A stretch of 41,912 nucleotides of DNA, taken from the sequence record NC_048178.1; one strand, 5' to 3'. The position numbers and the translations under genes are program-made. This DNA is from Escherichia phage Sortsne. The stretch's first letter is position 1, and the number at the start of each line of letters is the position of its first letter. The notes below the pieces were generated by a model. The model was not told the origin of the DNA and made no database searches. It worked only from the letters and a program-made list of their open reading frames with translations. This document shows positions 1-41,912 of this stretch, piece by piece.

Positions 1-72
1 TCGGTTACATTGGGAGATTTCACTTGATACCAATTTGAAACTTCGGAGGCTTCCGGTTACGGTATCATATAT

Positions 73-96
73 ATACCCCCCCTTTAGGGGGGGTAT
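73..96. repeat. perfect palindrome ATACCCCCCC-TTTA-GGGGGGGTAT amid GGTTAC/GTTACC iterons
   Basis: C7/G7 inverted repeat at 76-93; GGTTAC at 3-8 and 55-60, CCGTTACC at 113-120, more copies at 1826-1869 and 41594-41609. Confidence 0.5.
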
Positions 97-135
97 GATA
101 TGAAACGTGAAACCGTTACCGCGTAATGATACCTG

Positions 136-1806
136 TTAAAAGTCCTGTAGATCGTCGGTGTGGTCGTCGGTCGGTTGCCAGTCCGTCGGACGCGGATCGT
201 TATCGCGGATTCCGCCCAGTGGTCCCATAGATTCCATCATGGCCGTCAGCGTCTCGTCGCCTGCCATCTTTATCAGGATCTGCTTTTTGGTGGCATGTTC
301 GAACGCGCGATAAAAATCGACCTTGCTCATTGGCGGCTCGGCGGCGTTGCGCATCCATTCAGACAGCGCGCCTTTCGTCAGCTTAGGCCCCCGGTACTTG
401 TTGGCCTTGCGGCGCTCGTTGTACTCGTGGACGTACTGAGCGAGCCTGAGAGCGTTTTCCTGGGTCTTGCTAACCTTCTTCTCCGCCTGCTGCGCTTCGT
501 CCGCGCCTGCGGCCTCCTGTTTGACCATTTCGGGCTTATTGATAACGACCAGCGTCGTGTCGTTGTTGCCGATGTTCCACGCTGCCGGGTCGTCGCTGTT
601 CGTGACCTTGCTCATGCGGGCCATAGCCTCGCGCTTCGCCTGCACGAGCGCCGGAGGGAGTTTTACGGTCTTTGTACGGAACGCGCGACGGTCCAGCATG
701 GCGGAGCCTTTGGCCTTCGTGTGGTCGAAGATGAAAAGCTCCCGGTCCTTGTGCTTGGACAGCGTGATCTCGAATGCGGCGTTTGCCTTGAGCGCCGACG
801 CACCGCGCGCGCCCCTGGCGACGTCCTTCCCGGAGTGGTGGAGGATCACCACGCCACAGTTAAGCGCCTCGGCCAGCTTCTGCGCGTTGACCATCAGGAG
901 CGCGGCCTGGTCGTTGTTGTTCTCGCTGAATGGCTCGCCCCCGGTCCAGCGTCCGGCCTCGTCGCCCGTCGGCTCCCTCCAGACCTCGCCGATCTTCTGG
1001 CCTGCGGAGTTGGCGCTGTAGGTGTCAATTATGACCAGCGCCGGGGGATTGGCTTCGAAGAACGGGGAGGAGTTGATCGCCGCTGCGAACTTCATCAGGT
1101 CGCGCTCGCGGTTGAGTGGGACAGGTCGGCCCATGATAAACAGGTTATCCAGTGGCTTGTCGCCGTTCTGGCTGTAGCGCCAGCCCGCGTATCGCTCTTT
1201 CACGCCGTCGGCGTCCTCTGGTGCGAAGTACAACACGGAGCCTTTACGGACGGGCAAGCCGCCGAAGTGGTGGCCCTTCGCCACGCTGATCGCCATCTGT
1301 AGCGCGCAAAAGGTCTTTTTGGCCCCGGACTCGCCGACGATGAAGCCCACGGACCGCTCCGGGATCAGGTTCTGGATCACGTAGTTAACCACGCGGATCT
1401 CGGACTCCGCTCGCAGACGGTCCACGAGTTCGTCCGGCTGCTTCGCCAGCATTTCGGCGATCTTCGCCTTGTCACGTGCGCGGCGCTCCTCGGTGGTCAG
1501 GCTGCGCGGCATCATGGCGGGCTGGTTGTCCTCGTCCAGTACGACGTCCCACTGGTGATCCTCCTCCACGCTGGCGATCTGCCACAGGCTAAACTCCTCC
1601 ATGCTTACGCCGACCTGTTCGGCCTGTTCTTTGGCGAGCATTTCCTCCCGCTCCAGATCCTCCAGCGTAGGCTCCGGGGCCTGTTCCTGAATTGCTGCCA
1701 GGTCTGGGGGGATCTCGTGGTGCTCGATGGCTTCCGGTTCAAACATGGCGCGGAGTTCTTCTTCGCTCGGCTCCTGCTGCCCTTCGTCTCTGTCGTCTTG
1801 AATCAT
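136..1806 (-). CDS. RecA-fold replicative helicase/ATPase (RepA/DnaB-like, AAA_25-type) with acidic N-terminal extension
   Basis: 556-aa ORF; Walker A GESGAKKT followed by VVILHHSGKD motif typical of RepA/DnaB-like hexameric helicases; about 150-aa acidic N-terminus; GTTACC iterons on both sides. Confidence 0.6.
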   Translation of the reverse strand: MIQDDRDEGQQEPSEEELRAMFEPEAIEHHEIPPDLAAIQEQAPEPTLEDLEREEMLAKEQAEQVGVSMEEFSLWQIASVEEDHQWDVVLDEDNQPAMMPRSLTTEERRARDKAKIAEMLAKQPDELVDRLRAESEIRVVNYVIQNLIPERSVGFIVGESGAKKTFCALQMAISVAKGHHFGGLPVRKGSVLYFAPEDADGVKERYAGWRYSQNGDKPLDNLFIMGRPVPLNRERDLMKFAAAINSSPFFEANPPALVIIDTYSANSAGQKIGEVWREPTGDEAGRWTGGEPFSENNNDQAALLMVNAQKLAEALNCGVVILHHSGKDVARGARGASALKANAAFEITLSKHKDRELFIFDHTKAKGSAMLDRRAFRTKTVKLPPALVQAKREAMARMSKVTNSDDPAAWNIGNNDTTLVVINKPEMVKQEAAGADEAQQAEKKVSKTQENALRLAQYVHEYNERRKANKYRGPKLTKGALSEWMRNAAEPPMSKVDFYRAFEHATKKQILIKMAGDETLTAMMESMGPLGGIRDNDPRPTDWQPTDDHTDDLQDF

Positions 1807-1952
1807 AACGCTTTCCTTAAATCATGGTAACAGTGTGAGGTTTCATTGTAACCACGGCGTGTTACCGCGTCAACGTCCCACCGTTAAAGATAATTCTTTA
1901 CATCATGGTTTCGCTGTATTACCTTTAAGACTCCCCACTTCGGGAGGTATAG

Positions 1953-2393
1953 ATGGAAATTTTCGGGAGTAACGGCGTCGCCCCGGTGCGGCGCAAAACC
2001 AGCGCGGAGAAGCTGCTGGAGATACTGGAGAAGGTCACGCCCACGGATCTGTCCATTCAGGACGCTATCGATCGCGGGGTGCTGGATCGCTTCGGAGTGA
2101 CGCAAGAAGTCCGGGACGCTTTCGCCCGGCTGCGGCCATCGGAGCAAATCTTCGCGGCGTTCTTCGGTGTCGAGGGTGTGAACGACGAGGCAATGATGGC
2201 CCTATGTCGCCACACGGCAAACATGGAGCGCGCCGGACTGCTGCGCGATCTGAAAGTGGACAGGAGCCTTATCGAATGCGCTCCGGTCGAGTCGGACGGT
2301 CTGGACCACGTGATCCCCCCAGGGGTCGAGGTCGGACCGGAATTAGCCGCCGCCGTTCTGCGGTGTCGGGAACAGTTGAGGAGCAAACAGTGA
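1953..2393 (+). CDS. hypothetical protein
   Basis: 146-aa ORF with GGGAGG Shine-Dalgarno 8 nt upstream; first gene of plus-strand cluster divergent from helicase. Confidence 0.5.
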   Translation: MEIFGSNGVAPVRRKTSAEKLLEILEKVTPTDLSIQDAIDRGVLDRFGVTQEVRDAFARLRPSEQIFAAFFGVEGVNDEAMMALCRHTANMERAGLLRDLKVDRSLIECAPVESDGLDHVIPPGVEVGPELAAAVLRCREQLRSKQ

Positions 2394-5311: not shown

Positions 5312-5829
5312 TCGCCGCCCTCCGGCTGTTCCTCTCGACTCACTGGCGCTTAGTGCTGCTGGCCGTTGTCGTGCTGCTGGCGCTGGGGGGATCTTTCTGG
5401 GCGGGCCACGAGTGGAGCGATCGCGCGTGGTCCAAACGCTGGGCGCAACGGGACGCGAACGACTCCTCCCAGGAAGCGAACGCACAAGCCGCCGCCCGTA
5501 TCATTGAACAGGGGCGAAACATCGCCCGCGAGGAGTCCGTAAAATATGCGAACGAACAGGCCGCAAAAGCTCGCGCCGCTGCTGCTGCTTCTGGTGCTGC
5601 CCTTGATCGGTTGCTCGAACGAGCCAGCAAGGAAGCCGCCCGACGCGAAGCCGCTGATCAGACCGCTGCCCTCGGAAGGGCGTCAGGGGAACAGACCGCC
5701 CGAATGTATTCCGACTTGCTCCGACGGACTGGAGAAGCTGCTCGACGGTATGCTGATATAGCGGAGGGGGCGATCACCGCTGGGGAGGTATGCGAAAGGA
5801 ATTACGACGCCGTGGAGCGTCAGCAATGA
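5308..5829 (+). CDS. i-spanin (Rz-like)
   Basis: N-terminal TM anchor then Ala/Arg/Glu-rich coiled-coil-like periplasmic region; directly after endolysin; contains embedded lipoprotein ORF. Confidence 0.7.
   Translation: MIAALRLFLSTHWRLVLLAVVVLLALGGSFWAGHEWSDRAWSKRWAQRDANDSSQEANAQAAARIIEQGRNIAREESVKYANEQAAKARAAAAASGAALDRLLERASKEAARREAADQTAALGRASGEQTARMYSDLLRRTGEAARRYADIAEGAITAGEVCERNYDAVERQQ
5546..5761 (+). CDS. o-spanin (Rz1-like), embedded in Rz in alternate frame
   Basis: 71-aa ORF wholly inside Rz; signal peptide with lipobox LIGC; proline-rich mature part. Confidence 0.65.
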   Translation: MRTNRPQKLAPLLLLLVLPLIGCSNEPARKPPDAKPLIRPLPSEGRQGNRPPECIPTCSDGLEKLLDGMLI

Positions 5830-5858
5830 GAAAGGGGCCTTGCGGCCCCTTTTTTTAT
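5829..5858. terminator. bidirectional intrinsic terminator between lysis cassette and Ig-like gene
   Basis: AAAGGGGCC-TTGC-GGCCCCTTT stem-loop followed by T7, A-rich on the other side; convergent gene ends. Confidence 0.8.
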
Positions 5859-6625
5859 GCTGCCGGATTAACCGTAACAGTACAGTGAATGGATTCGACC
5901 GTTTTCGGGGGGTTGGTGTTGCTGCTGGTGGCTACGCACCAGTATTCCCCGGCATCACCAGCGACCGGGGACGCTTTGGTGTAGGTCGCGGAGGTCGCCC
6001 CGGAGATCGGCGCGCCGTCCTTGTACCACTGGTAAGAGTACGGAGCGAGGCCCGTCTGAGGGTTCGCGGCCACTACCAGGGAGGCGGAGGTCCCGACGGT
6101 CCACGTCGCGCTCGCGGACAGGTTGGTGGACAGCGAGATCGCGACCTTCGTCCTCACGCGCTGAGAGTCCAGCGTCTGCCCGATCGAGTCGGTGATGGTC
6201 ACGAAGTAGTCCGCGTTATGGGTCGCTGCGGTGTAGTTCGAGATCGTCAGCGTGTCAGTCGTTGCGCCGCTGTAGCCGTTGGCGTTGGTGACGTTGCTCG
6301 TCTGCCCGCCGGAGATTTTCTTCCACTGGTAGGAGTAAGGAGGAACGCCATCAGCGGCCACCACTTTAAAGTCCTTACTGGTGCTAACCGGGACGTAAGT
6401 CGCGCCAGCGTCGCCAGCGGCCACGCCGGGGAGATCGGTCGTGAACTTGAGCGGCTTCGCCAGGTTCGGGTCGTACTCCATGTAAAACATACCAGTGGGA
6501 TCAAGCCCGGTCGGCTCGTCAGCCAGCCAGATCACGTCCTGCTGAGGGACTTCCGACGGGTCGGAGATCCGGGTGACTTTCCAGCCCAGGAGATCCGGGC
6601 GGTAGTAGCGATGCCAATAACTCAT
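5855..6625 (-). CDS. Ig-like domain protein (two tandem Ig-like repeats)
   Basis: Start refined to ATG at 6625 (GAGGA RBS); repeated PPYSYQWKK / APYSYQWYKDG motifs typical of bacterial Ig-like domains. Confidence 0.55.
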   Translation of the reverse strand: MSYWHRYYRPDLLGWKVTRISDPSEVPQQDVIWLADEPTGLDPTGMFYMEYDPNLAKPLKFTTDLPGVAAGDAGATYVPVSTSKDFKVVAADGVPPYSYQWKKISGGQTSNVTNANGYSGATTDTLTISNYTAATHNADYFVTITDSIGQTLDSQRVRTKVAISLSTNLSASATWTVGTSASLVVAANPQTGLAPYSYQWYKDGAPISGATSATYTKASPVAGDAGEYWCVATSSNTNPPKTVESIHCTVTVNPAA

Positions 6626-10456: not shown

Positions 10457-10482
10457 GGCCCCACGTGCGGGGCCTTTTTTTT
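10457..10482 (+). terminator. plus-strand-oriented intrinsic terminator in primase-dUTPase intergenic region
   Basis: GGCCCCACGTGCGGGGCC hairpin followed by T8 on the plus strand; U-tract faces opposite to the flanking genes. Confidence 0.5.
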
Positions 10483-11293
10483 ACCCGAACGCCCCGCAAT
10501 AGTCCCCGCCCCATCTGGCGCGCCCGGTCTTGTCATAGGCATACATCCAGGCCTCGTCCGGGTCGGTGCATACCATGCGAAGCTCCCGATCGCCGTCGTA
10601 TTCGAGGGCCACCTGTACCGCGTTACGTGGCGTAAAGGTTAGCCATACCTCGGCCCCGGTGCGAGCGGCCACATTCACGGCATGGCCTGGATCGGCCACA
10701 AGATACGCCGTCTTGCCGTCGGGTACTGGGTGGATCAGGCCATAGGCTCCCCACGTCCGGCCACCAGCGGCGAACGCCACCGAACGGTCCGGCGCGATCT
10801 TCGCCACGTTGCAGGGCATCCCCCCAGACGCGCGGACGCATGGAACATACAGGAAGCCGTCGCGCATCGTGCCTTTAGCCATGACCTTCTCCACGTCCTC
10901 CGGCGTCAGGCTGTAGTCCTCGCCCGGCCTGTCCTGCATCCTGGCTAACTTCTTCGCCTCGCGGACGATCGTCTCCCGCTTCTCCGGGGTGAGTCCGCCT
11001 ATCCAGTCGCCCAGGTCGTTGATCGCCTCGTTGAATGGCTGGTTACGCGAGGCCATAAACCAAAACATGCCATCACGAGCGCCACCGCACGAGCCGGAGC
11101 AATAGGCGAAGCCCTCGCCCCGCTTATTGGCCTGCTTATGGCCCCATCGGAAACGGTCGGAGCCGCCACAGATCGGGCAAGCCTGGTGCTTCCCGTTGAA
11201 CGCCTTCCGGTCCCATCCGCACAGATCGAGGAGCGCCTGTTCCCACTTGCCGGGCATAGCGCCTAACACGTCCTCTTTTTTGTAAATTGCCAT
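10481..11293 (-). CDS. DNA primase (zinc-ribbon plus TOPRIM)
   Basis: N-terminal CPICGGSDRFRW...YCSGSCG primase-type zinc ribbon; C-terminal TOPRIM-like acidic motifs (YLVADPG...CTDPDEA). Confidence 0.7.
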   Translation of the reverse strand: MAIYKKEDVLGAMPGKWEQALLDLCGWDRKAFNGKHQACPICGGSDRFRWGHKQANKRGEGFAYCSGSCGGARDGMFWFMASRNQPFNEAINDLGDWIGGLTPEKRETIVREAKKLARMQDRPGEDYSLTPEDVEKVMAKGTMRDGFLYVPCVRASGGMPCNVAKIAPDRSVAFAAGGRTWGAYGLIHPVPDGKTAYLVADPGHAVNVAARTGAEVWLTFTPRNAVQVALEYDGDRELRMVCTDPDEAWMYAYDKTGRARWGGDYCGAFG

Positions 11294-16729: not shown

Positions 16730-16957
16730 ATGATGGAGCCTATGATGGCGCAAAAATTAAAGCCTGTTTGCCTCGTGAAAGAAGTCCGCGAAGCGAAGGG
16801 CGTCAAACAGAAAGACCTCGCGGAAGCGACTGGCATCCTCCAGCAACGTTTAAGCTGCTATGAGAACGGCCACGATCTCCCGTCTGTAACTAACCTCTGC
16901 CGCCTTGCTGTAGCGCTGGAGGTTTCCATTAACGATCTGATCGAGTACGGAGTGTAA
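16730..16957 (+). CDS. XRE-family helix-turn-helix regulator (Cro-like)
   Basis: 75 aa; GVKQKDLAEATGILQQRLSCYENG is a classic XRE HTH; own promoter carries TATCAC motifs. Confidence 0.7.
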   Translation: MMEPMMAQKLKPVCLVKEVREAKGVKQKDLAEATGILQQRLSCYENGHDLPSVTNLCRLAVALEVSINDLIEYGV

Positions 16958-17221: not shown

Positions 17222-17252
17222 AGAAAGGGGCCAATTAAGGCCCCTTTTTTTA
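17222..17252. terminator. bidirectional intrinsic terminator between recombination operon and tailspike
   Basis: AAAGGGGCC-AATTAA-GGCCCCTTT plus T-run; convergent gene ends. Confidence 0.8.
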
Positions 17253-19625
17253 TGGTCCGCCAGTGATAGGCGGGCGGGTCTGGATCTGCTTATACATCCT
17301 GATCTGAGTCTCCGCCGGGATCGCCGTCTGGATGGCGTCCGCGATATCGACCACGATCGGCGCGCCGGAGTCACTCGGCGGCGTCTGGTACGGAGGGCGG
17401 ACGACCGTCGTCACGAGGTCAGCGCCACCAGCGCCAGCTTTCGGAATGACGATCCGCGTCCCAGGGGACAGCATGGTGGTATAGAGCCACGGCGATCCGG
17501 TAGAGGTCCCGTTAGGCGTTAACCACTGCGTGATCGACTTCTGGCCCACGCTCGCGGCCATGATCTTCGCCTGGTTCCCGGTCGGGAAGTACGCGCCAGC
17601 CTCCACGACGAGGTAAGGCTTAAGCCCCACGATCCCGTTAGGTCCGTTAGCCGGATCGTTGCCGCCGTAGTCGTAAGTCCAGACCAGATCGCCGCGGTCG
17701 AACTCGCGGCCACAGGGGAAGAAGTTGCCATATCCGCCGTGGGCCGTGATATCCGGGAAAAACTGTTTAGACACGTTTCCCAGCATAGCGCCCAGCGAGC
17801 CGTCGATGTTGACATACATCCGGGCCTCAATATTGGAATTGACAATATTGATATTGCTGTAACGGCACTTGCTCCACGCCTGCGTCGTCGGGTTCCGGCT
17901 GTTAACGTTGACCATGTTCAGGACGGATTTAGTCCTGATATATTCCCCGTTCGAGGTGGTCCCGCCGCTGGAGTCGTCGCCCACCGCGTCCAGTTCCCAG
18001 CATTGAACGTTAAACATATCAAGCTGAGTCGCCACGCCGAAGATCGTCAGTTTGTAACAGTCGATATTCTCCAGTTTTACCCGGTTATCGTGGGGGGATC
18101 GGTTAACGCCCGGCGTCGGGTCGCCACGGTCAGCGGCCACAGGGCAGTAAACACGGCCCGTTTTCGTGCGGACGTTGCGGATCGTATAGTTGCGCGGAGA
18201 GGACAGACGCGGCGGCCCCCATTCCATATGGATAATGCGGAGATCGTGGACGTCGGTCGAGGCGTTGGTGACAGGCTCCCCGTCCACGCCGTCGATCACG
18301 AAGTCTTTACAGCCCGACGTGTAGATCCCGGCGGTGGTGATGCCAGTCCCCACGGACATATTCACATCCGGGTTAACGGTCACATTCTGGATCGTGAAGT
18401 CGCGCCCCATTTCAACGTGAATACACTGTTTACACTGGTTAACGAGAACGTTACGGATCGTGAAGTTGCGCGCGTAGTTCTCGTCAGGCAGATCCCAGCC
18501 ATAAGGGCCTTTACCCGCGATACCGATCCCCAGGCCCCAGTTAGAAGCGAAGTTGCCGGGGTTAATGCCGTTGATGTTGTCGAGGAGGATATTTTCGATA
18601 ACGCAACCATTTTCAAAGCATTGATGGACCACGTTTAGCTCGATCCCGTCGCCCTGCATGTTAACAAATGCGAGGTTGCGGAAGATGCCGCGAGACATAA
18701 ACGCATTGCCGCCCTGGTGAATGATCCCGTTATAGCCGTTCGTAAACAGGCATCCGTCCATCTCGATCGTTCCCCAGATCTGAGGACCGCCGGACTGTAC
18801 GCCCTGGATGTTGACATGAGAGTTATTGCTCCCCCCAGGGATGCCGTCATACCAACAATCAAACATCCGCACGTCGCCGCCGTCATGGCGCATACGGTGG
18901 CCGTTACGGCCTAACACGTTTCGTAAGGTCGTATTCTGACACCACATCGAACGACCGCGCCACGTACCGCCGATCACCTCGCAGTTAACAAAGCGGGGAT
19001 CGTTGCCCGTCAGCGTCCAGTCGCCACCACGGATCACGATGTTACTCGCGGTAAGGATGCCGTTAGTCGTGCCTTTCCAGCCATGCGCCCAGACTTCGAG
19101 GCCGTTCGCGCTGGCGTAGTCAAACATCGCCTGTAAAGCCTGCGTTACGCTGGTGTATTCCGGCTTGCCGACGAAGTTCCACGGCGTCACGTAGCCGTTT
19201 AGCTGCTCCTGCACGTTGCCGACTGGCGTCCCGACATAGCTCGCGCCCTTCCCGGAGATCAGGAGGCTCCACATCTGCGCCGGGTCGTATTCGAACAGGT
19301 TCCCGAAATAGTATTGTTGGACGTCGTTACGGTCGTAAACGGCCATAGACGCCTCGATCTTCGTGACCAGCTTCACCACTTGACCATTCCAGATCGGGAA
19401 GCCGACGACGTTCGTCCGTACAGGCTGCGGGATAGGGGTCAGGGTTAGATCCTCGTTCTCGACGTAGATCTGGACCTGGTTCTCCGGGTTCGTCGGGTCG
19501 GTGTCGGCCTTTCCTGCGTAGATCTTCCCGTCCACCAGCGAGGCGAATCGGTCCTTACGAAAGAACGGTTGCGACGGCATCCCTAACGTGCTGAATACCT
19601 CAAGTTGTGCCATGAATCGCTCCAT
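17250..19625 (-). CDS. tailspike protein (P22-type N-terminal head-binding domain plus beta-helix receptor-binding/depolymerase domain)
   Basis: N-terminus GKIYAGKADTDPTNPENQVQIYVENED...NGQVVKLVT...SMAVYD closely parallels the P22 tailspike N-domain as recalled; the rest has beta-helix-like repeats. Confidence 0.85.
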   Translation of the reverse strand: MERFMAQLEVFSTLGMPSQPFFRKDRFASLVDGKIYAGKADTDPTNPENQVQIYVENEDLTLTPIPQPVRTNVVGFPIWNGQVVKLVTKIEASMAVYDRNDVQQYYFGNLFEYDPAQMWSLLISGKGASYVGTPVGNVQEQLNGYVTPWNFVGKPEYTSVTQALQAMFDYASANGLEVWAHGWKGTTNGILTASNIVIRGGDWTLTGNDPRFVNCEVIGGTWRGRSMWCQNTTLRNVLGRNGHRMRHDGGDVRMFDCWYDGIPGGSNNSHVNIQGVQSGGPQIWGTIEMDGCLFTNGYNGIIHQGGNAFMSRGIFRNLAFVNMQGDGIELNVVHQCFENGCVIENILLDNINGINPGNFASNWGLGIGIAGKGPYGWDLPDENYARNFTIRNVLVNQCKQCIHVEMGRDFTIQNVTVNPDVNMSVGTGITTAGIYTSGCKDFVIDGVDGEPVTNASTDVHDLRIIHMEWGPPRLSSPRNYTIRNVRTKTGRVYCPVAADRGDPTPGVNRSPHDNRVKLENIDCYKLTIFGVATQLDMFNVQCWELDAVGDDSSGGTTSNGEYIRTKSVLNMVNVNSRNPTTQAWSKCRYSNINIVNSNIEARMYVNIDGSLGAMLGNVSKQFFPDITAHGGYGNFFPCGREFDRGDLVWTYDYGGNDPANGPNGIVGLKPYLVVEAGAYFPTGNQAKIMAASVGQKSITQWLTPNGTSTGSPWLYTTMLSPGTRIVIPKAGAGGADLVTTVVRPPYQTPPSDSGAPIVVDIADAIQTAIPAETQIRMYKQIQTRPPITGGP

Positions 19626-28144: not shown

Positions 28145-28189
28145 TGTGACTTCTCCGGGTCGGTTGTTAACGGGTCAAGTATAAGCCAA

Positions 28190-28217
28190 AAAAAAGAGGC
28201 CACAAAGGCCCCTTTTC
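28190..28217 (-). terminator. intrinsic terminator after major capsid gene
   Basis: GC hairpin followed by U8 on minus strand directly downstream of coat stop codon. Confidence 0.6.
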
Positions 28218-28235
28218 TCATAGTGCGCGGCTCGC

Positions 28236-30990: not shown

Positions 30991-31403
30991 TTGTTGCGCG
31001 CTCCGATCATGGCTTGCCAGGTAAACACGACCGTATCGGAAAGAAGCTCGTCCACTCCCTCCTCCTCCATCTGCTCGTAAAGTCCATCGAGAGCGCCGGG
31101 GATCTGCTCCCATAGGGCTTTACGTCCGGCCTCGATCTGCTCCGCCGTCGGCTGGAGTTCCACCTCGATCGGGGCCGGAGCGACTTCGCCCGCCTTCACC
31201 TGCGGCTCCGCGTTGGTCATGAGGGCCTCGACCTGCATCGCCACGATAGCGATCGCCATGCCATACGCCGCCAGATCCTGCTCGGTCGGCTGCTGAATGA
31301 AACGGCCAGCCAGTCGGGCCTCGTGCTGCTTCACCAGCGCCTCGATCCCCATTTCTTCGGCCTGGGCCAGCATGATCGCGCGCATTGCTTTTGCTTCGTT
31401 CAT
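30987..31403 (-). CDS. hypothetical acidic protein (portal-scaffold insertion, gene 2 of 3)
   Basis: 138-aa ORF preceded by GGCCCC-CACA-GGGGCC hairpin and CCAACCAACGAGAGAGAC leader. Confidence 0.45.
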   Translation of the reverse strand: MNEAKAMRAIMLAQAEEMGIEALVKQHEARLAGRFIQQPTEQDLAAYGMAIAIVAMQVEALMTNAEPQVKAGEVAPAPIEVELQPTAEQIEAGRKALWEQIPGALDGLYEQMEEEGVDELLSDTVVFTWQAMIGARNK

Positions 31404-31453
31404 CGTTTTGTCTCTCTCGTTGGTTGGTTAGGCCCCCACAGGGGCCGGGTTAG

Positions 31454-36891: not shown

Positions 36892-37186
36892 GCGATCCCT
36901 TGCCGGGGGAGAGGTCCGGGCATAGGTGCATATTCTCCGGGGTGATAGGCCAGGGGCTAACCGGGTGACGGTACGCCAGGGAGTCGGCCTTCTTGGCGAT
37001 GTACCCCCGGACCTTCCCGCCGCCGCGCTGGCTGCTGTATGCCGCACAGATCACGCACGAGCCGTTAGTGGTGTATCGAGTGAAGTTGCCGGGGTGCTCC
37101 TTGCACTCCCCGCCGTGGTACGTCTTGCGCTTGAGGAGAAGGGCCTCCGCCCTGCTCCGCGCCACTGAGCGCTCTTTCGTCTCCAT
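36881..37186 (-). CDS. hypothetical Cys/His-containing protein (candidate late regulator)
   Basis: 101-aa ORF coupled to upstream gene (TGATG); 3' end overlaps a promoter-like -10 and precedes a terminator; coding status uncertain. Confidence 0.3.
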   Translation of the reverse strand: METKERSVARSRAEALLLKRKTYHGGECKEHPGNFTRYTTNGSCVICAAYSSQRGGGKVRGYIAKKADSLAYRHPVSPWPITPENMHLCPDLSPGKGSPWT

Positions 37187-37689
37187 CAGTCACAGCCCCC
37201 GGAGGAGGACGATCCGCTGTCGCTGCTGCCGGAGTCGTAGCTCCCGCCGTCGTCGTGGCTGGAGTGGTGGCGGCTGCTGCTGTCGTCGTGGCTGCTGGAG
37301 TGGCTGCGGTGGCTGCTGCTGTCCCAGTCCGCCCGGTCGCTGGTGTGGCAGATCGGATTGAGTGGCGAGGTCAGGGAAAGCGGGTTCAGCGGGTCGAGGT
37401 CGTCGCCCTGGTTGCGGAGTGCGCGCCGGGTCGGGTCGCTGCGGAGGGCGTTCGCCTCACGTGCTGCGGACTTGTCGGCCATGCTGCGGGGAGCCTGCAC
37501 GACCTTAGCCTGGGGACGGTTCGCCATCGTCTCGATCATGCGCTCCATACGCGCCTTACCGCTTAGGACGTCCTGGACGCTGCGCTGGTTGCAGTCGTCA
37601 CAGATCCAGAATACGTCCGCGCTCTCGGTCCATTTGCGCGGGGCCTGCTTGCCGCACGTGCGGCACTCTTTGAAACGTTTAAGGGACAT
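37186..37689 (-). CDS. zinc-ribbon protein with His/Ser/Asp-rich low-complexity tail
   Basis: Start refined to ATG 37689 with conserved CACGAGAGAGA leader; CRTCG...(17)...CDDC ribbon; C-terminal SSSHRSHSSSHDDSSSRHHSSHDD. Confidence 0.45.
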   Translation of the reverse strand: MSLKRFKECRTCGKQAPRKWTESADVFWICDDCNQRSVQDVLSGKARMERMIETMANRPQAKVVQAPRSMADKSAAREANALRSDPTRRALRNQGDDLDPLNPLSLTSPLNPICHTSDRADWDSSSHRSHSSSHDDSSSRHHSSHDDGGSYDSGSSDSGSSSSGGCD

Positions 37690-37757
37690 TGTGATCTCTC
37701 TCGTGGGTGGAAACGGCCCCAGCATAGCGCCGGGGCAAACATCATGCAAGCGTTAAA

Positions 37758-38039
37758 TTATGCGGACAATACCCACCAGCCCATAGCCACGATAAGCGCG
37801 CCGAAGCCGATCCACTTCCACGGCAACGGCTTAACGTCTGCGAGCGCCGCCATCAGTCCGGGAGGGCCGGAGATCTCGACGCCGTTCGAGGTGGTCATAG
37901 TCCCGAATACGCCCTCCGCCTGTAGCCTGCGCTTTACCGCGTCAAGGTCTACGGGCGGGCGGTTGATCCAGTCGCGGACCTCTCGATCCGGGATGTACCC
38001 CGGAGGGAATGCTCGATCCCCCCAGGTCCCGGCGGTCAC
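37758..38039 (-). CDS. hypothetical protein with C-terminal TM anchor
   Basis: 93 aa, C-terminal WKWIGFGALIVAMGWWVLSA hydrophobic helix. Confidence 0.4.
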   Translation of the reverse strand: MTAGTWGDRAFPPGYIPDREVRDWINRPPVDLDAVKRRLQAEGVFGTMTTSNGVEISGPPGLMAALADVKPLPWKWIGFGALIVAMGWWVLSA

Positions 38040-38986
38040 TTTACGCGGCGGAAGCGCTTAACCTGTTCCCACGCGACGACGCTCACCTGGAGCGTGTTAT
38101 GGCGTCCGCCTACCGTCTCGATCTCCACCATATCGTCGTCGTTCAGGAGGGGCGGGCGGCGGTCCTTGTCGAAGCGCTGCCACACGATCCAGTCCTCGCC
38201 CTGTTCGCCAGTCTGCGGACGGTCCAGCAAGGCGTCCAGCAATGCCTCCGCCGTACCGATAGTGATCCGCCCGCCTCGGTACTGCTCGATCAGTTGGCGG
38301 GTCTGGTCGGAGCGCTGGATGTGCCAGCGGAGGCTCTGCTCCGTCTCCTGGTGGACGCGCTCGGCGAAGTGGGCCACGCGCTCCGGGTCGGTGTCGCAAC
38401 GGGTCAGGCGCTCGCGGGCTTCGTGCTCGTTAACAAGCTGCTGGAGGCCGCGCGTCGGCATCTTGAAAACGTTCCAGTTATACGGGACGCGCTTCTCGTC
38501 GCAAGCCTTCACGTAACGCTCCAGAAGGTCCACGCGGCGCTCGGCGTCCTTCGCTGCCTCGGCGTGTTTCTCGCTGGCTTCGGCCATTGCCACCAGTTCG
38601 CGGGCCTTCTGCTCGGTCCATGCGATGGTCTGCGGCTTGCCGTCGATCGGGCGGAAGGTTGGCGGGACGTGTAGCGCGCCGACGATCTCGCGGATGTTCA
38701 CGTAATACCCGCTCATCCGGTGCTCCGCCTCGGTCATGGTCTGGAGTTGGCGCTCCAGTGCGCGCTCGTGGGACTTGTCGCGCCACTTCTCCGACTCCTT
38801 GAATACACGCTCCAGCGCGTCGAGGGACAGGAGGGGGAGGTGGTGCGGGGCCAGGTCCGGCTCGGCCTTAAAGCCGTGTTGCATGGCGTCGGTAACGTCG
38901 GCGATCCAGTTGGCGCGCTGCTGTACCTGGGTGCGGGCTACATGGTCCATCAGGGCGTAAGCCACGCCGCTGTCGTGTGAGTTCAT
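38036..38986 (-). CDS. hypothetical protein
   Basis: 316-aa ORF preceded by hairpin plus CCAACCAACGAGAGAGAC leader. Confidence 0.5.
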   Translation of the reverse strand: MNSHDSGVAYALMDHVARTQVQQRANWIADVTDAMQHGFKAEPDLAPHHLPLLSLDALERVFKESEKWRDKSHERALERQLQTMTEAEHRMSGYYVNIREIVGALHVPPTFRPIDGKPQTIAWTEQKARELVAMAEASEKHAEAAKDAERRVDLLERYVKACDEKRVPYNWNVFKMPTRGLQQLVNEHEARERLTRCDTDPERVAHFAERVHQETEQSLRWHIQRSDQTRQLIEQYRGGRITIGTAEALLDALLDRPQTGEQGEDWIVWQRFDKDRRPPLLNDDDMVEIETVGGRHNTLQVSVVAWEQVKRFRRVK

Positions 38987-39032
38987 AGTCTTGTCTCTCT
39001 CGTTGGTTGGCCCCGTTGCCGGGGCGGTTGGA

Positions 39033-40739: not shown

Positions 40740-41024
40740 TTATGCTGCGGCCAGTTCGCCGCCGATGAATGCCAGGACTTCGCGGAGGTGCTTCTCGTCG
40801 CGGATGGTGGCCGGGAGTTCTTCCTTGATGGCGCGATCCAGGTAGATATTGCCATTCCATGTATAGGAGCCGTTAGGGTTGACCAGATAGGAGAACATCC
40901 ATTCGCAATCGTTATCCGCTTCCCACACGCACAGGATGATCTTGCCGTCGTTGTCGATATCTTCCAGGGTCACGTCGAGGTTACGTTTTGCTGCGAAGGT
41001 TTTTGTAGTTTTGGACAGGTTCAT
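40740..41024 (-). CDS. hypothetical protein
   Basis: Start refined to ATG 41024 (MNLSKTTKTF...) with conserved CCAGCGAGAGAGAC leader. Confidence 0.4.
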   Translation of the reverse strand: MNLSKTTKTFAAKRNLDVTLEDIDNDGKIILCVWEADNDCEWMFSYLVNPNGSYTWNGNIYLDRAIKEELPATIRDEKHLREVLAFIGGELAAA

Positions 41025-41136
41025 GGCTTCGTCTCTCTCGCTGGTGGGCTGCACCGTTGCCGCCCTTGATGTGATAAAGAATATCTCAGAGGCGGCAAGG
41101 TGTCCAGCAAAATATCACGAAAAGATTAAATTATTT

Positions 41137-41567: not shown

Positions 41568-41605
41568 CTCGTTCTCCTCGTTTGCTCGTCGCCGTAACGA
41601 ATCCG

Positions 41606-41806
41606 TTACAGTCCCAGAATGTTAAACACGATCGCCGCTAACAGTACGATGCCAGCGCCGTAAACCGTGAAGCACATCAGCAATAAATTCCACTGGCCGA
41701 CCTCCTTCCGGTACTCGCTGATCGTCTCCGGTTCGGTCCGTCCCCTTGCCTTCCGGTCGGGGAATTTAATCACGTTAATATTAACCTCTCTTTCATCACG
41801 AATCAA
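41606..41806 (-). CDS. questionable small membrane-protein ORF
   Basis: Track ORF begins with TTG and has no RBS; region is dense in operator-like motifs; an AAGGAGG RBS sits further in, in another frame. Confidence 0.2.
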   Translation of the reverse strand: MIRDEREVNINVIKFPDRKARGRTEPETISEYRKEVGQWNLLLMCFTVYGAGIVLLAAIVFNILGL

Positions 41807-41912
41807 TGATAATTATGTGTGGTATTTGTCGGGGGTTTACCCGGCCCATTTCCTCAATGTTTGCCCCTTCGGGCTACCCGTTACCGAAAGTAATGTAAGT
41901 TATTGATTACTG

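Follow-up and report, generated by a model that had tools for sequence, protein, structure and literature searches.

[quoted passage not shown] The analysed window is the complete, circularly permuted genome (41,912 bp) of this P22/Sf6-like podophage. The helicase gene sits between the two repeat clusters, and the features are listed in Table 1. The first-pass annotation had proposed that iterons next to a RepA-like helicase mark a replication origin. This idea is strengthened by the conservation of position and orientation in 17 related genomes, by the covariation of the repeats with the winged-helix domain, and by the match in layout with the Rep/ori system of SaPI; however, the upstream cluster is better read in another way, as described below.

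Repeat unit and enrichment

The repeat unit had been taken as GTTACC. The listed copies do exist (GGTTAC at 3-8 and 55-60, CCGTTACC at 113-120, and on the other side of the helicase gene GGTAAC at 1826, GTAACC at 1848 and GTTACC at 1861); whereas comparison with the relatives showed that the true repeat is a degenerate heptamer, GGTWWC(A), of which GTTAC is only a part. The helicase gene is bordered by two intergenic regions, 387 nt in total, which hold 13 of the 62 genomic copies of GGTWWC where 0.46 would be expected (P ~4e-15); in 20,000 shuffles of the local sequence, this count was never reached. The full GGTWWCA has 9 of its 17 copies in the same 387 nt (expected 0.07). The flanking copies are of the GGTWAC type in 7 of 7 cases, which are 7 of the 38 genome-wide (P 3e-8).

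The Sortsne cluster is the weakest among all the relatives, and its iterons are degenerate. The repeats might be considered functionless, a common pentamer having clustered by chance where intergenic DNA is richer in AT, as GTWAC by itself occurs often (81 copies, 1.9 per kb) and its enrichment in the window is modest: the densest two 250-300-nt GTWAC windows of the genome are the helicase flanks, with four copies each (P = 0.0016 and 0.0036 against shuffles of the local sequence). This explanation has a negligible probability; it is refuted by the refined motif (P ~1e-15) and by the position and orientation kept in 17 genomes despite eight motif sequences.

Table 1. Features of the Sortsne window related to the helicase and its repeats.
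Feature	Position	Strand	Remarks
Helicase gene	136-1806	-	556 aa
Predicted C-terminal winged-helix domain, coding region	241-468	-	aa 447-522
Central hairpin	73-96	.	symmetry centre of downstream iteron cluster
Three iterons, helicase side of hairpin	TGAAACC 108-114, GTTACC 115-120, TGATACC 127-133	-	facing the hairpin
Two tandem iterons, far side	GGTTAC 55-60, GGTATCA 61-67	+	pointing back to the hairpin
Outer iterons	GGTTACA 3-9, TGATACC 25-31	+, -
Outermost iteron	GTTACC 41880-41885	-	across the arbitrary window end, continuous with position 1
Candidate operator	1826-1866	.	41 bp, quasi-palindromic; four iterons, > > < < on the helicase-sense strand
Operator iterons	TGTTACC 1860-1866, TGTAACC 1847-1853, GGTTTCA 1839-1845, GGTAACA 1826-1832
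Putative sigma-70 helicase promoter	TTGACG 1873-1868, TACAAT 1850-1845	-	17-nt spacer; scan score 10/12
Inferred divergent rightward promoter	TTTACA 1897-1902, TACCTT 1920-1925	+	17-nt spacer; conservation in relatives
Iteron in divergent-promoter spacer	GGTTTC 1907-1912
g2, neighbouring gene of the helicase	1953-2393
Primase, DnaG-type, separate gene	10481-11293		270 aa
XRE regulator	16730-16957

The downstream cluster and its hairpin

Eight copies of GGTWWC(A) extend from 3 nt to ~165 nt past the helicase stop (span 41880-133). They surround a perfect palindrome, ATACCCCCCC-TTTA-GGGGGGGTAT, which the first-pass annotation had described correctly. The palindrome widens to an imperfect one at 65-103 with AT-rich shoulders. 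Folded as DNA, the hairpin has an energy of ~-21 kcal/mol (z = -4.3), and 0 of 200 shuffles fold as well. The iterons at 108, 115 and 127 face those at 55 and 61 across the hairpin, and this pattern is repeated in all 18 loci. The far-side tandem iterons lie at +7/+13 relative to the stem, as in IME279, Kc237, L009 and P0009. The positions of the outer iterons (+42 and +65) are conserved in the Sortsnevirus relatives, and that of the outermost iteron (+100) is also conserved in relatives.

In the 18 loci, the hairpin has a perfect stem of 7-10 bp and lies 27-40 nt after the helicase stop. The stems have at least 10 different sequences and are complementary every time, which is compensatory change. 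On the helicase-sense strand, pyrimidines dominate the 5' arm and purines the 3' arm in every case; the stems have evolved by C-to-T and G-to-A transitions via G:T or G:U intermediates. The stems were taken from a direct palindrome search; the MAFFT alignment of the hairpins was out of structural register because the loop lengths vary. At its centre the cluster has a G/C-stem hairpin, with AT-rich shoulders in Sortsne, IME279 and Kc237; whereas the KMB41-like phages are AT-rich in the loop only. An Rfam search of the whole window gave no match. A DnaA-dependent origin was rejected, as no DnaA box (TTATCCACA, up to one mismatch) was found near either cluster.

Upstream operator and transcription control

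The TTGACC/TTGACG and TACATT/TACAAT elements of the putative helicase promoter are conserved in the relatives, and the same upstream positions hold each relative's own motif. The divergent promoter appears in the relatives as TTTACA, 16-17 nt and TAATGT/TAATAT/TATGCT; the promoter scan passed over the -10 element of the window, which is weak. The operator iterons overlap the -35 and -10 of the putative helicase promoter, and thus the cluster at 1826-1866 fits an autoregulatory operator better than it fits a component of the origin itself. The four iterons over the -35/-10, together with the one in the divergent promoter, would allow the helicase to control its own expression.

All the repeats might instead be operators only, bound by the winged-helix domain or by another factor. 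The upstream set would then repress the divergent promoters; the downstream set would flank a hairpin at an RNA 3' end, acting as a terminator or stabilising the mRNA, and would modulate read-through to the leftward genes; and the origin would be located elsewhere. The overlap of the upstream iterons with a good promoter is consistent with this explanation, and so is the hairpin, which lies in the usual place of a terminator in all the relatives. The G:T/G:U intermediates of the stem also fit a single-stranded RNA (or DNA) hairpin, and the genes downstream of the helicase are all on the same strand. However, neither strand shows a consistent U-run after the stem (among the tails are ATGTAACC, ATAAACGC and TTAACGCG), and no consistent T-run follows it in the 18 loci. 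The terminator scan was silent at 73-96 on both strands; whereas the real terminators of this phage carry T7 runs (families D5 and I15). The hairpin resembles a Rho-independent terminator in being a G/C-rich stem-loop soon after the stop, but the defining U-run is absent in the window and in most relatives; an intrinsic terminator was rejected on the scan and the tails. Moreover, 8-10 convergent sites at a terminator have no obvious regulatory logic, whereas the layout is exactly that of a SaPI origin, and the fusion of a predicted DNA-binding domain to a replicative helicase is a hallmark of initiator-helicases. Transcription control alone is considered a rather unlikely explanation.

Architecture of the helicase

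The helicase begins with an acidic N-terminus of low model confidence, followed by an SF4 core of the RecA fold, a disordered linker (aa ~406-444), the predicted winged helix, and an acidic tail ending in DDLQDF. The motor belongs to AAA_25, with a RecA fold and a Walker A motif. The best structural matches of the core are RepA (1g8y), DnaB, gp41, Twinkle and T7 gp4, and the RSF1010 RepA is the closest solved structure. The C-terminal domain is modelled as a winged helix, a fold of the DNA-binding type, with moderate confidence (mean pLDDT 70.6); a Foldseek search with this model gave no significant match. A word-index protein search with the C-terminal domain alone returned zero matches, its profile found nothing significant among the PDB sequences, and NCBIfam gave no match. 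When the same profile was run in an exhaustive HMM search against 1.84 billion representatives, it recovered nothing beyond the cluster of its own clade and two long repetitive proteins, which look spurious; therefore, the C-terminal domain is an orphan by sequence.

Repeat class follows the C-terminal domain

The same layout was found directly 3' of the helicase stop in 17 related genomes, with a hairpin between short repeats that face it; the IMG/VR scan contributed 2 loci only. The relatives carry 7-14 repeat copies, and the helicase promoter of each has the same repeat as the downstream cluster. Unbiased k-mer scans of the relatives also found enrichment at the same two places (P 1e-9 to <1e-15). 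The repeat sequence varies between phages and falls into at least eight classes, in all of which the iterons converge on the hairpin. The phages of this group are mosaic, and the Murrayviruses have two further hypervariable proteins, which are orthologues of window 38036-38986 and 37186-37749.

Across 136 genome pairs, the final ~90 structured residues are the only part of the helicase that the repeat class follows. Pairs with a C-terminal-domain identity of at least 75% always have a common motif; whereas pairs with differing motifs have at most 74%. In three independent cases the core stays the same while both the C-terminal domain and the motif differ. The helicases of sortsyn and ST231 are 98% identical at aa 1-100 and 96% at aa 101-430, but only 50-55% in the C-terminal domain, and their repeats are AACGTTA and ATAACAT, respectively. 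The identities of the N-terminus, core and C-terminal domain show the same pattern for P0009 versus P0005 (94/92/54%) and for KMB41 versus P0012 (88/92/61%). The upstream and downstream clusters switch together despite up to 98%-identical coding sequence between them, and therefore simple linkage is no explanation. Signatures at the start of the third helix (H3) of the C-terminal domain follow the motif across genera; a column-wise search for specificity-determining positions was confounded by phylogeny, and the H3 signatures are used as support only. To judge from this covariation, the specificities of the C-terminal domain and the iteron appear to be matched, and the winged-helix domain would decide which iteron gets recognised.

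Other determinants were rejected. The helicase N-terminus diverges in sortsyn, ST231 and IME_EC2, and hence was suspected first; it is 98% identical between sortsyn and ST231, the motifs of which differ. The helicase core is 92-96% identical in pairs with different motifs. Within the 4-kb loci in which candidate binders were compared, IME279 and P0013 share a 99% identical g2 protein, and P0009 and P0005 a 95% identical one, yet the motifs differ within each pair. KMB41 has the same XRE regulator as ST231 (100% identical) and nearly the same as Lumpael (99%), and their motifs also differ.

It is improbable that another protein binds the repeats and that the C-terminal domain covaries only through adjacency, co-travelling in recombination. 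The coding region of the domain does end ~100 nt from the downstream cluster, and mosaicism and the two other hypervariable proteins would suit such a scenario; that the helicase itself binds the repeats is also what we infer from sequence. However, the upstream cluster and the C-terminal domain vary together although 1.3 kb of 92-98% identical sequence lies between them, both the neighbouring g2 and the XRE regulator are excluded, the recognition-helix signatures recur with the same motif in different genera, and the fold of the domain is predicted to be of the DNA-binding type. These observations argue for recognition by the helicase's own C-terminal domain.

Genome ends and packaging

The first-pass annotation had also noted a palindrome at 41594-41609 as related to the repeats. 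The palindrome (GTAACGAATCCGTTAC) exists; however, it carries CGTTAC, not GGTWWC, and the Murrayviruses of different repeat classes have a common, different small inverted repeat at the equivalent position. It is therefore outside the repeat system.

A further suggestion, that the junction of the window ends holds pac, was not borne out, and a pac site or physical genome end here is very improbable. The GenBank records of Sortsne, IME279 and Kc237 do start within ~400 nt of each other at this place. However, the window has no terminal repeat, IME279, sortkaff and Kc237 are colinear across the junction, which is internal in sortkaff, and the IME279 record begins inside a gene. In 10 metagenomic contigs (~40-42 kb) the helicase is found anywhere from ~15 to 39 kb, as circular permutation predicts. 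The large terminase matches Sf6 gp2 (E 2e-85). Sf6 and P22 use headful packaging with pac in or near the small-terminase gene; whereas this gene is ~5.5 kb away from the junction, the small-terminase genes of the window lying at ~35.8-36.8 kb. Counting against the origin reading, the GC skew has no origin signal. Its extremes were computed and follow the strand switches in gene orientation, so the skew is uninformative on the origin.

Comparison with known replication systems

The closest parallel in layout is the Rep/ori system of SaPI in Staphylococcus aureus. Experiments showed that the C-terminal winged helix of SaPI Rep binds penta- or hexanucleotide iterons, with the origin directly downstream of rep and at least two opposed iterons per side (PMC9371898). 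Sortsne is predicted to be similar in that a C-terminal winged helix reads 5-7 bp iterons immediately downstream of its own gene (PMC9371898). Systems of this type have six to twelve such iterons, and the eight downstream copies of Sortsne fall in this range. Both also have at least two oppositely pointing iterons on each side of a central region, a Rep-origin specificity (predicted for the Sortsne group) that differs between otherwise related elements, and no evident separate loader or initiator. However, the SaPI origins contain an AT-rich tract of ~80 bp, whereas Sortsne has a G/C-stem hairpin with short AT-rich shoulders only. The SaPI Rep motor is AAA+ (SF3/MCM-clade), whereas the Sortsne helicase is a RecA-fold SF4 enzyme; this suggests a similar way of working, not membership by descent.

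The satellite phage P4 has ori and crr. As in Sortsne, where this is predicted, its replication protein ends in a winged helix; both also have two separate clusters of one short repeat, and a primase in the same replication module. The P4 alpha protein is a DnaG-type primase fused to an SF3 helicase; whereas Sortsne has a separate primase and an SF4 helicase. A similar build, with a winged-helix origin-binding domain at the end, has been described for P4 alpha (PMC2777425), and ORF904 of pRN1 is reportedly also similarly built (PMC4234260). The distant relative MED16 has a primase-helicase fusion of the Sortsne helicase family, and a repeat of its own, GGATTAT, surrounds a palindrome there.

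The oriV of the IncQ plasmid RSF1010 has iterons as well as a palindrome with hairpins for single-strand initiation. Its 20-bp iterons are bound by a separate RepC, and RepA is not known to have a DNA-recognition domain; in contrast, the predicted recognition domain is fused to the helicase in Sortsne, and the iterons are 6-7 bp. Recognition delegated to a RepC-type protein does not fit, as the specificity tracks the helicase's own C-terminal domain and, among the candidates compared, the neighbouring genes are excluded. The large T antigen of SV40/polyomavirus reads > > < < pentanucleotides that neighbour an AT tract and a palindrome, and it uses the same sites to repress its own promoter. 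It is an SF3 helicase of a eukaryotic virus with an unrelated origin-binding fold, and therefore only an analogy.

Proposed mechanism and significance

The protein would consist of an RSF1010 RepA-like (SF4) motor, a flexible linker, and a C-terminal winged helix that reads the 6-7 bp GGTWWC(A). The downstream cluster, with its eight convergent iterons around the hairpin, is most likely the phage origin. The helicase subunits might be gathered on both sides of the palindrome, which would open or extrude together with its AT-rich flanks. Helicase rings could then be loaded and replication could proceed in both directions, with the DnaG-type primase, a separate protein, supplying the primers.

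Loaders usually assist SF4 helicases in getting onto single-stranded DNA; therefore, self-loading at double-stranded DNA is an extrapolation from the SF3/AAA+ systems. Only tentatively do we suggest that this is the first SF4 (RepA/DnaB-type, 5'-3') helicase to find and load at its own double-stranded origin without an initiator or loader. The winged helices would clamp the convergent iterons around an extruding, pyrimidine/purine-polarised palindrome, where two rings assemble, and the origin/domain pair would be under diversifying selection. The phages would have at least eight specificities on helicase cores that are 92-98% identical.

If this is true, the winged-helix initiator-helicase with gene-adjacent iterons would extend from the AAA+/SF3 proteins (SaPI Rep, P4 alpha and pRN1) to the RecA-fold SF4 proteins, and loader-free loading of an SF4 ring would raise a mechanistic question. 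The eight or more matched domain/iteron pairs on near-identical cores would be a natural system for winged-helix DNA recognition and the diversification of origin specificity. Such diversified specificity may mean ‘private’ replication, a guard, for instance, against relatives or satellites in the same cell or against defences that target the origin. The Sortsnevirus and Murrayvirus phages, which are currently isolated for therapy and biocontrol, would also gain a mapped origin and an initiator, none of which has been described so far.

Repeat unit and enrichment around the helicase gene

The first-pass annotation had listed GTTACC-type repeats and palindromes flanking the replicative helicase gene, and every element was found where it had been placed. 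The gene encodes a 556-aa AAA_25 protein. The GTWAC pentamer is common in the window (81 copies), and nowhere in the genome is it denser than in the two windows that flank the helicase gene (shuffle P 0.0016 and 0.0036). At orthologous sites in the relatives often the central base alone was changed (GTTAC versus GTAAC), so that the apparent orientation of the pentamer flips. Comparison with the 96%-identical relative P0001 gave a wider, degenerate unit, GGTWWC(A), which takes in GGTATCA and GGTTTCA copies beyond the reach of the earlier annotation. The 387 intergenic nucleotides that flank the helicase contain 13 of the 62 GGTWWC copies where 0.46 would be expected (P 4e-15), a count never attained in 20,000 local shuffles; for GGTWWCA the flanks hold 9 of 17 copies versus 0.07 expected. 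With these figures the probability that a common word clustered here by chance is negligible, and the earlier observation is confirmed and considerably strengthened.

Features of the helicase region and other elements in the Sortsne genome
Feature	Position	Strand	Remark
Helicase gene	136-1806	minus	
Helicase acidic tail	139-162	minus	aa 549-556
Three forward-pointing iterons	127-133, 115-120, 108-114		after helicase stop, in order on helicase-sense strand
Imperfect palindrome	65-103		core, perfect C7/G7 hairpin at 73-96
Two tandem iterons pointing back	61-67, 55-60		past the palindrome
Three further iterons	25-31, 3-9, 41880-41885		at conserved distances
Conserved box TTTGAAACTTCGGAG	33-55		stem CGGA-GGCT-TCCG at 44-55
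IHF consensus match AATCAATAACTTA	41896-41908	minus	between iterons 41880 and 3
Second G/C hairpin GTCGGGGGTTTACCCGGC	41826-41846		
Palindrome GTAACGAATCCGTTAC	41594-41609		
66-aa membrane ORF	41606-41806	minus	
Four-iteron quasi-palindrome, > > < <, 41 bp	1826-1866		upstream of helicase
Putative sigma-70 promoter, TTGACG-17 nt-TACAAT	1873-1845	minus	scan score 10/12; under the four iterons
Divergent promoter, -35 TTTACA	1897-1902		inferred from conservation
Fifth upstream iteron	1907-1912		in spacer of divergent promoter
Gene g2	1953-2393		adjoins helicase
Primase gene	10481-11293		
Canonical terminators AAAGGGGCC-loop-GGCCCCTTTTTTT	5829-5865, 17224-17260, 28187-28228		near-identical
30-nt leaders	31398-31427, 38981-39010, 41019-41048		CCAACCAACGAGAGAGACAAGACTATGAAC on minus strand
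Hypervariable genes	38036-38986, 37186-37749	minus	function unknown

Conserved layout in the relatives

The relatives comprised GenBank phages (8), an IMG/VR contig (1) and Logan/ENA contigs (10), the last found via helicase homologues; a further 17 genomes or contigs show the downstream layout immediately 3' of the stop codon of the helicase. Unbiased k-mer scans were run for each phage, with copies counted in the helicase flanks versus the rest of the genome, and revealed a single short motif per phage that is enriched at both flanks. The motif is GGTAAC in IME279 and sortkaff (9 versus 16-19) and Lumpael (7 versus 9), GGTTACA in KMB41 (7 versus 1), AACGTTA in sortsyn and IME_EC2 (5 versus 4-5), and ATAACAT in ST231 (7 versus 4). 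Other motifs are CGTTACA (P0012, P0014), GCGTTAA (P0010, P0013; 10-11 copies), AGTAACA (P0005) and GGTTAC (P0009). In the distant Pantoea phage MED16 the helicase is part of a fusion with a primase, and the corresponding site holds a long palindrome surrounded by GGATTAT repeats. Two helicase orthologues look like annotation errors in GenBank: that of KMB41 (L016, 38983-40638) is named a 'cobalt-zinc-cadmium resistance protein', and that of IME_EC2 is split into a 'DNA primase' and a small ORF, probably by a frameshift.

The orientation pattern is constant over all motif classes: the helicase-side sites face the hairpin, and beyond it a tandem set, usually of two or three sites at 6-7 nt spacing, faces back, while the promoter iterons are arranged > > < < in every class. 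The hairpin is present 27-40 nt past the helicase stop in every relative. Its stems vary (C7/G7, TACCCCC/GGGGGTA, CTCTCTCT/AGAGAGAG, CCCTCTCT/AGAGAGGG, CTCCCTGT/ACAGGGAG, ACTCCCTT/AAGGGAGT and others) with perfect complementarity in all variants, and the 5' arm on the helicase-sense strand is pyrimidine-rich throughout. Hairpin sequence is independent of motif class; KMB41 and P0012 have one hairpin and two motifs. No consistent T-run follows it in the window terminator scan or in the relatives. The repeats and hairpin might serve only as operator and terminator, and the upstream iterons do lie over the helicase promoter; this is rather unlikely, as a U-run is missing and the geometry of the iterons resembles that of SaPI.

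Several other elements were observed. The conserved box inside the iteron cluster is common to IME279, Kc237, sortkaff and the related locus L009. The IHF consensus WATCAANNNNTTR has only two matches in the genome, and the AATAACTTA core of the one among the iterons is partly kept in relatives. The second G/C hairpin separates the iteron cluster from the next leftward gene; its counterpart in Lumpael and IME_EC2 is a cleaner CGGGGGTGACCCCCG with a T-run after it, which in the Murrayviruses looks like a plus-strand terminator. The three canonical terminators are located where gene orientation switches; the C7/G7 hairpin differs from them in being without a T-run. The GenBank records of Kc237 (L005, 1-100) and Kc166B (L015, 2860-2983) open with a common segment of ~100 nt, which contains a second C8/G8 hairpin between direct repeats GATATTATAT; in Kc166B it comes after a more distant helicase (35% identical).

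The probable reader of the repeats

The helicase is the most divergent Murrayvirus replication protein (~60% identity versus 85-98% for the others), and a split alignment placed the relevant divergence in its final part. The sortsyn and ST231 helicases, with motifs AACGTTA and ATAACAT, are 98% (aa 1-100) and 96% (aa 101-430) identical, with 50-55% in the C-terminal domain. The same three parts gave 94/92/54% for P0009 and P0005, 88/92/61% for KMB41 and P0012, and 67/97/49% for P0020 and P0021. Among 136 genome pairs, every pair with a C-terminal domain at least 75% identical had a common motif, and pairs with different motifs had at most 74%. Signatures at the start of helix 3 in this domain track the motif across genera: the two GGTAACA groups share K-x-Q-F, the two CGTTAA-type groups R-T-D-F-F-H and the two TAACA-type groups M-K-[LM]-T-R. 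Moreover, the upstream cluster and the C-terminal domain change together across nearly identical intervening coding sequence, and therefore linkage alone is insufficient for the covariation. These comparisons suggest that the C-terminal domain is very probably what binds the repeats.

Two other proteins were considered as readers. The product of g2 was excluded because near-identical pairs (IME279 and P0013, 99%; P0009 and P0005, 95%) have different motifs, and the XRE regulator because that of KMB41 is 100% identical to that of ST231 and 99% to that of Lumpael, despite different motifs. Binding by a protein other than the helicase appears very unlikely.

Besides the helicase, the orthologues of two leftward genes are hypervariable, being the only other families of 88 below 80% in every pair of four Murrayvirus genomes. 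Neither protein has a Pfam match, and they may be the products of rapidly evolving genes for host interaction or anti-defence. The acidic C-terminal tail of the helicase (...DDLxDF) is also conserved; D552, L553 and F556 are nearly invariant in 24 homologues, and in the structure model the tail is part of a disordered segment. It resembles the acidic tails ending in F of SSB, T7 gp4 and T7 gp2.5, and by analogy could be a partner-recruiting peptide.

Genome ends and the distal palindrome

Escherichia phage Sortsne (MK651787) is the type species of Sortsnevirus, with 60% G+C (PMC7552041); the window, of 41,912 bp, has 59.97%. Among BLAST records, Klebsiella phage IME279, Escherichia phage sortkaff and Kosakonia phage Kc237 come closest, at ~80% nucleotide identity, followed by the Murrayviruses IME_EC2, sortsyn, Lumpael, KMB41 and ST231. 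The window carries virion genes of the P22/Sf6 kind, and its large terminase matches Sf6 gp2 (PDB 4idh, E 2e-85). The two ends of the window run on into each other in relatives, with the junction internal in sortkaff; the window has no terminal repeat, and the helicase position varies from ~15 to 39 kb across ten related metagenomic contigs of ~40-42 kb. Judged from these sequences, the genome is circularly permuted and the window begins at an arbitrary point in it. The suggestion that the junction holds a packaging site was not borne out by these data or by the Sf6-like terminase, and a pac site or genome end there is highly improbable.

The distal, intercistronic palindrome that had been related to the repeats is present, overlapping the 66-aa membrane ORF at the stop codon, 26 nt ahead of the next start codon. 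Its counterpart in IME279 is GTAACGAAACCGTTAC. It was not counted in the iteron system, since it contains CGTTAC and not GGTWWC, and in the Murrayviruses another small inverted repeat (GTGACGGGCCTCAC) takes its place, regardless of iteron class. A repeated 30-nt leader also precedes three leftward genes as a common 5' region that includes the ribosome-binding site and the start codon.

Proposed replication mechanism

No published description of an origin in Sortsnevirus or Murrayvirus was found in the literature search. In the staphylococcal island initiator-helicase SaPI Rep, experiments showed that the C-terminal winged helix reads penta- or hexanucleotide iterons; this helicase is self-loading, and the origin is immediately downstream of rep, with at least two iterons per side in opposite directions (PMC9371898). 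The Sortsne layout matches it in the predicted winged helix, the iterons downstream of the gene and their opposed orientations. P4 alpha (PMC2777425) and pRN1 ORF904 also share the helicase-plus-winged-helix plan, and the origin region of pRN1 is located 3' of that gene (PMC4234260). The motors of these three proteins are AAA+/SF3, whereas that of Sortsne is SF4, so that membership of the group by descent fails, but the proposed working logic is the same. The closest structural relative of the Sortsne helicase is that of RSF1010, whose 20-bp iterons are read by a separate protein, RepC.

The most economical reading is that the helicase is a self-recognising initiator-helicase with the downstream cluster as its origin, which we infer to be likely. 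The winged-helix domains would collect helicase subunits on either side of the palindrome, which would open together with its AT shoulders, and the helicase rings would then load; the promoter cluster would give autorepression. An origin beside the helicase, as first proposed, is supported by the conserved iteron layout and by the covariation of the motif with the C-terminal domain. The separate primase has a zinc ribbon, and among phage families DNA primase comes closest to it. The relatives have no annotated DNA polymerase, which suggests that the host DNA polymerase is used for replication.
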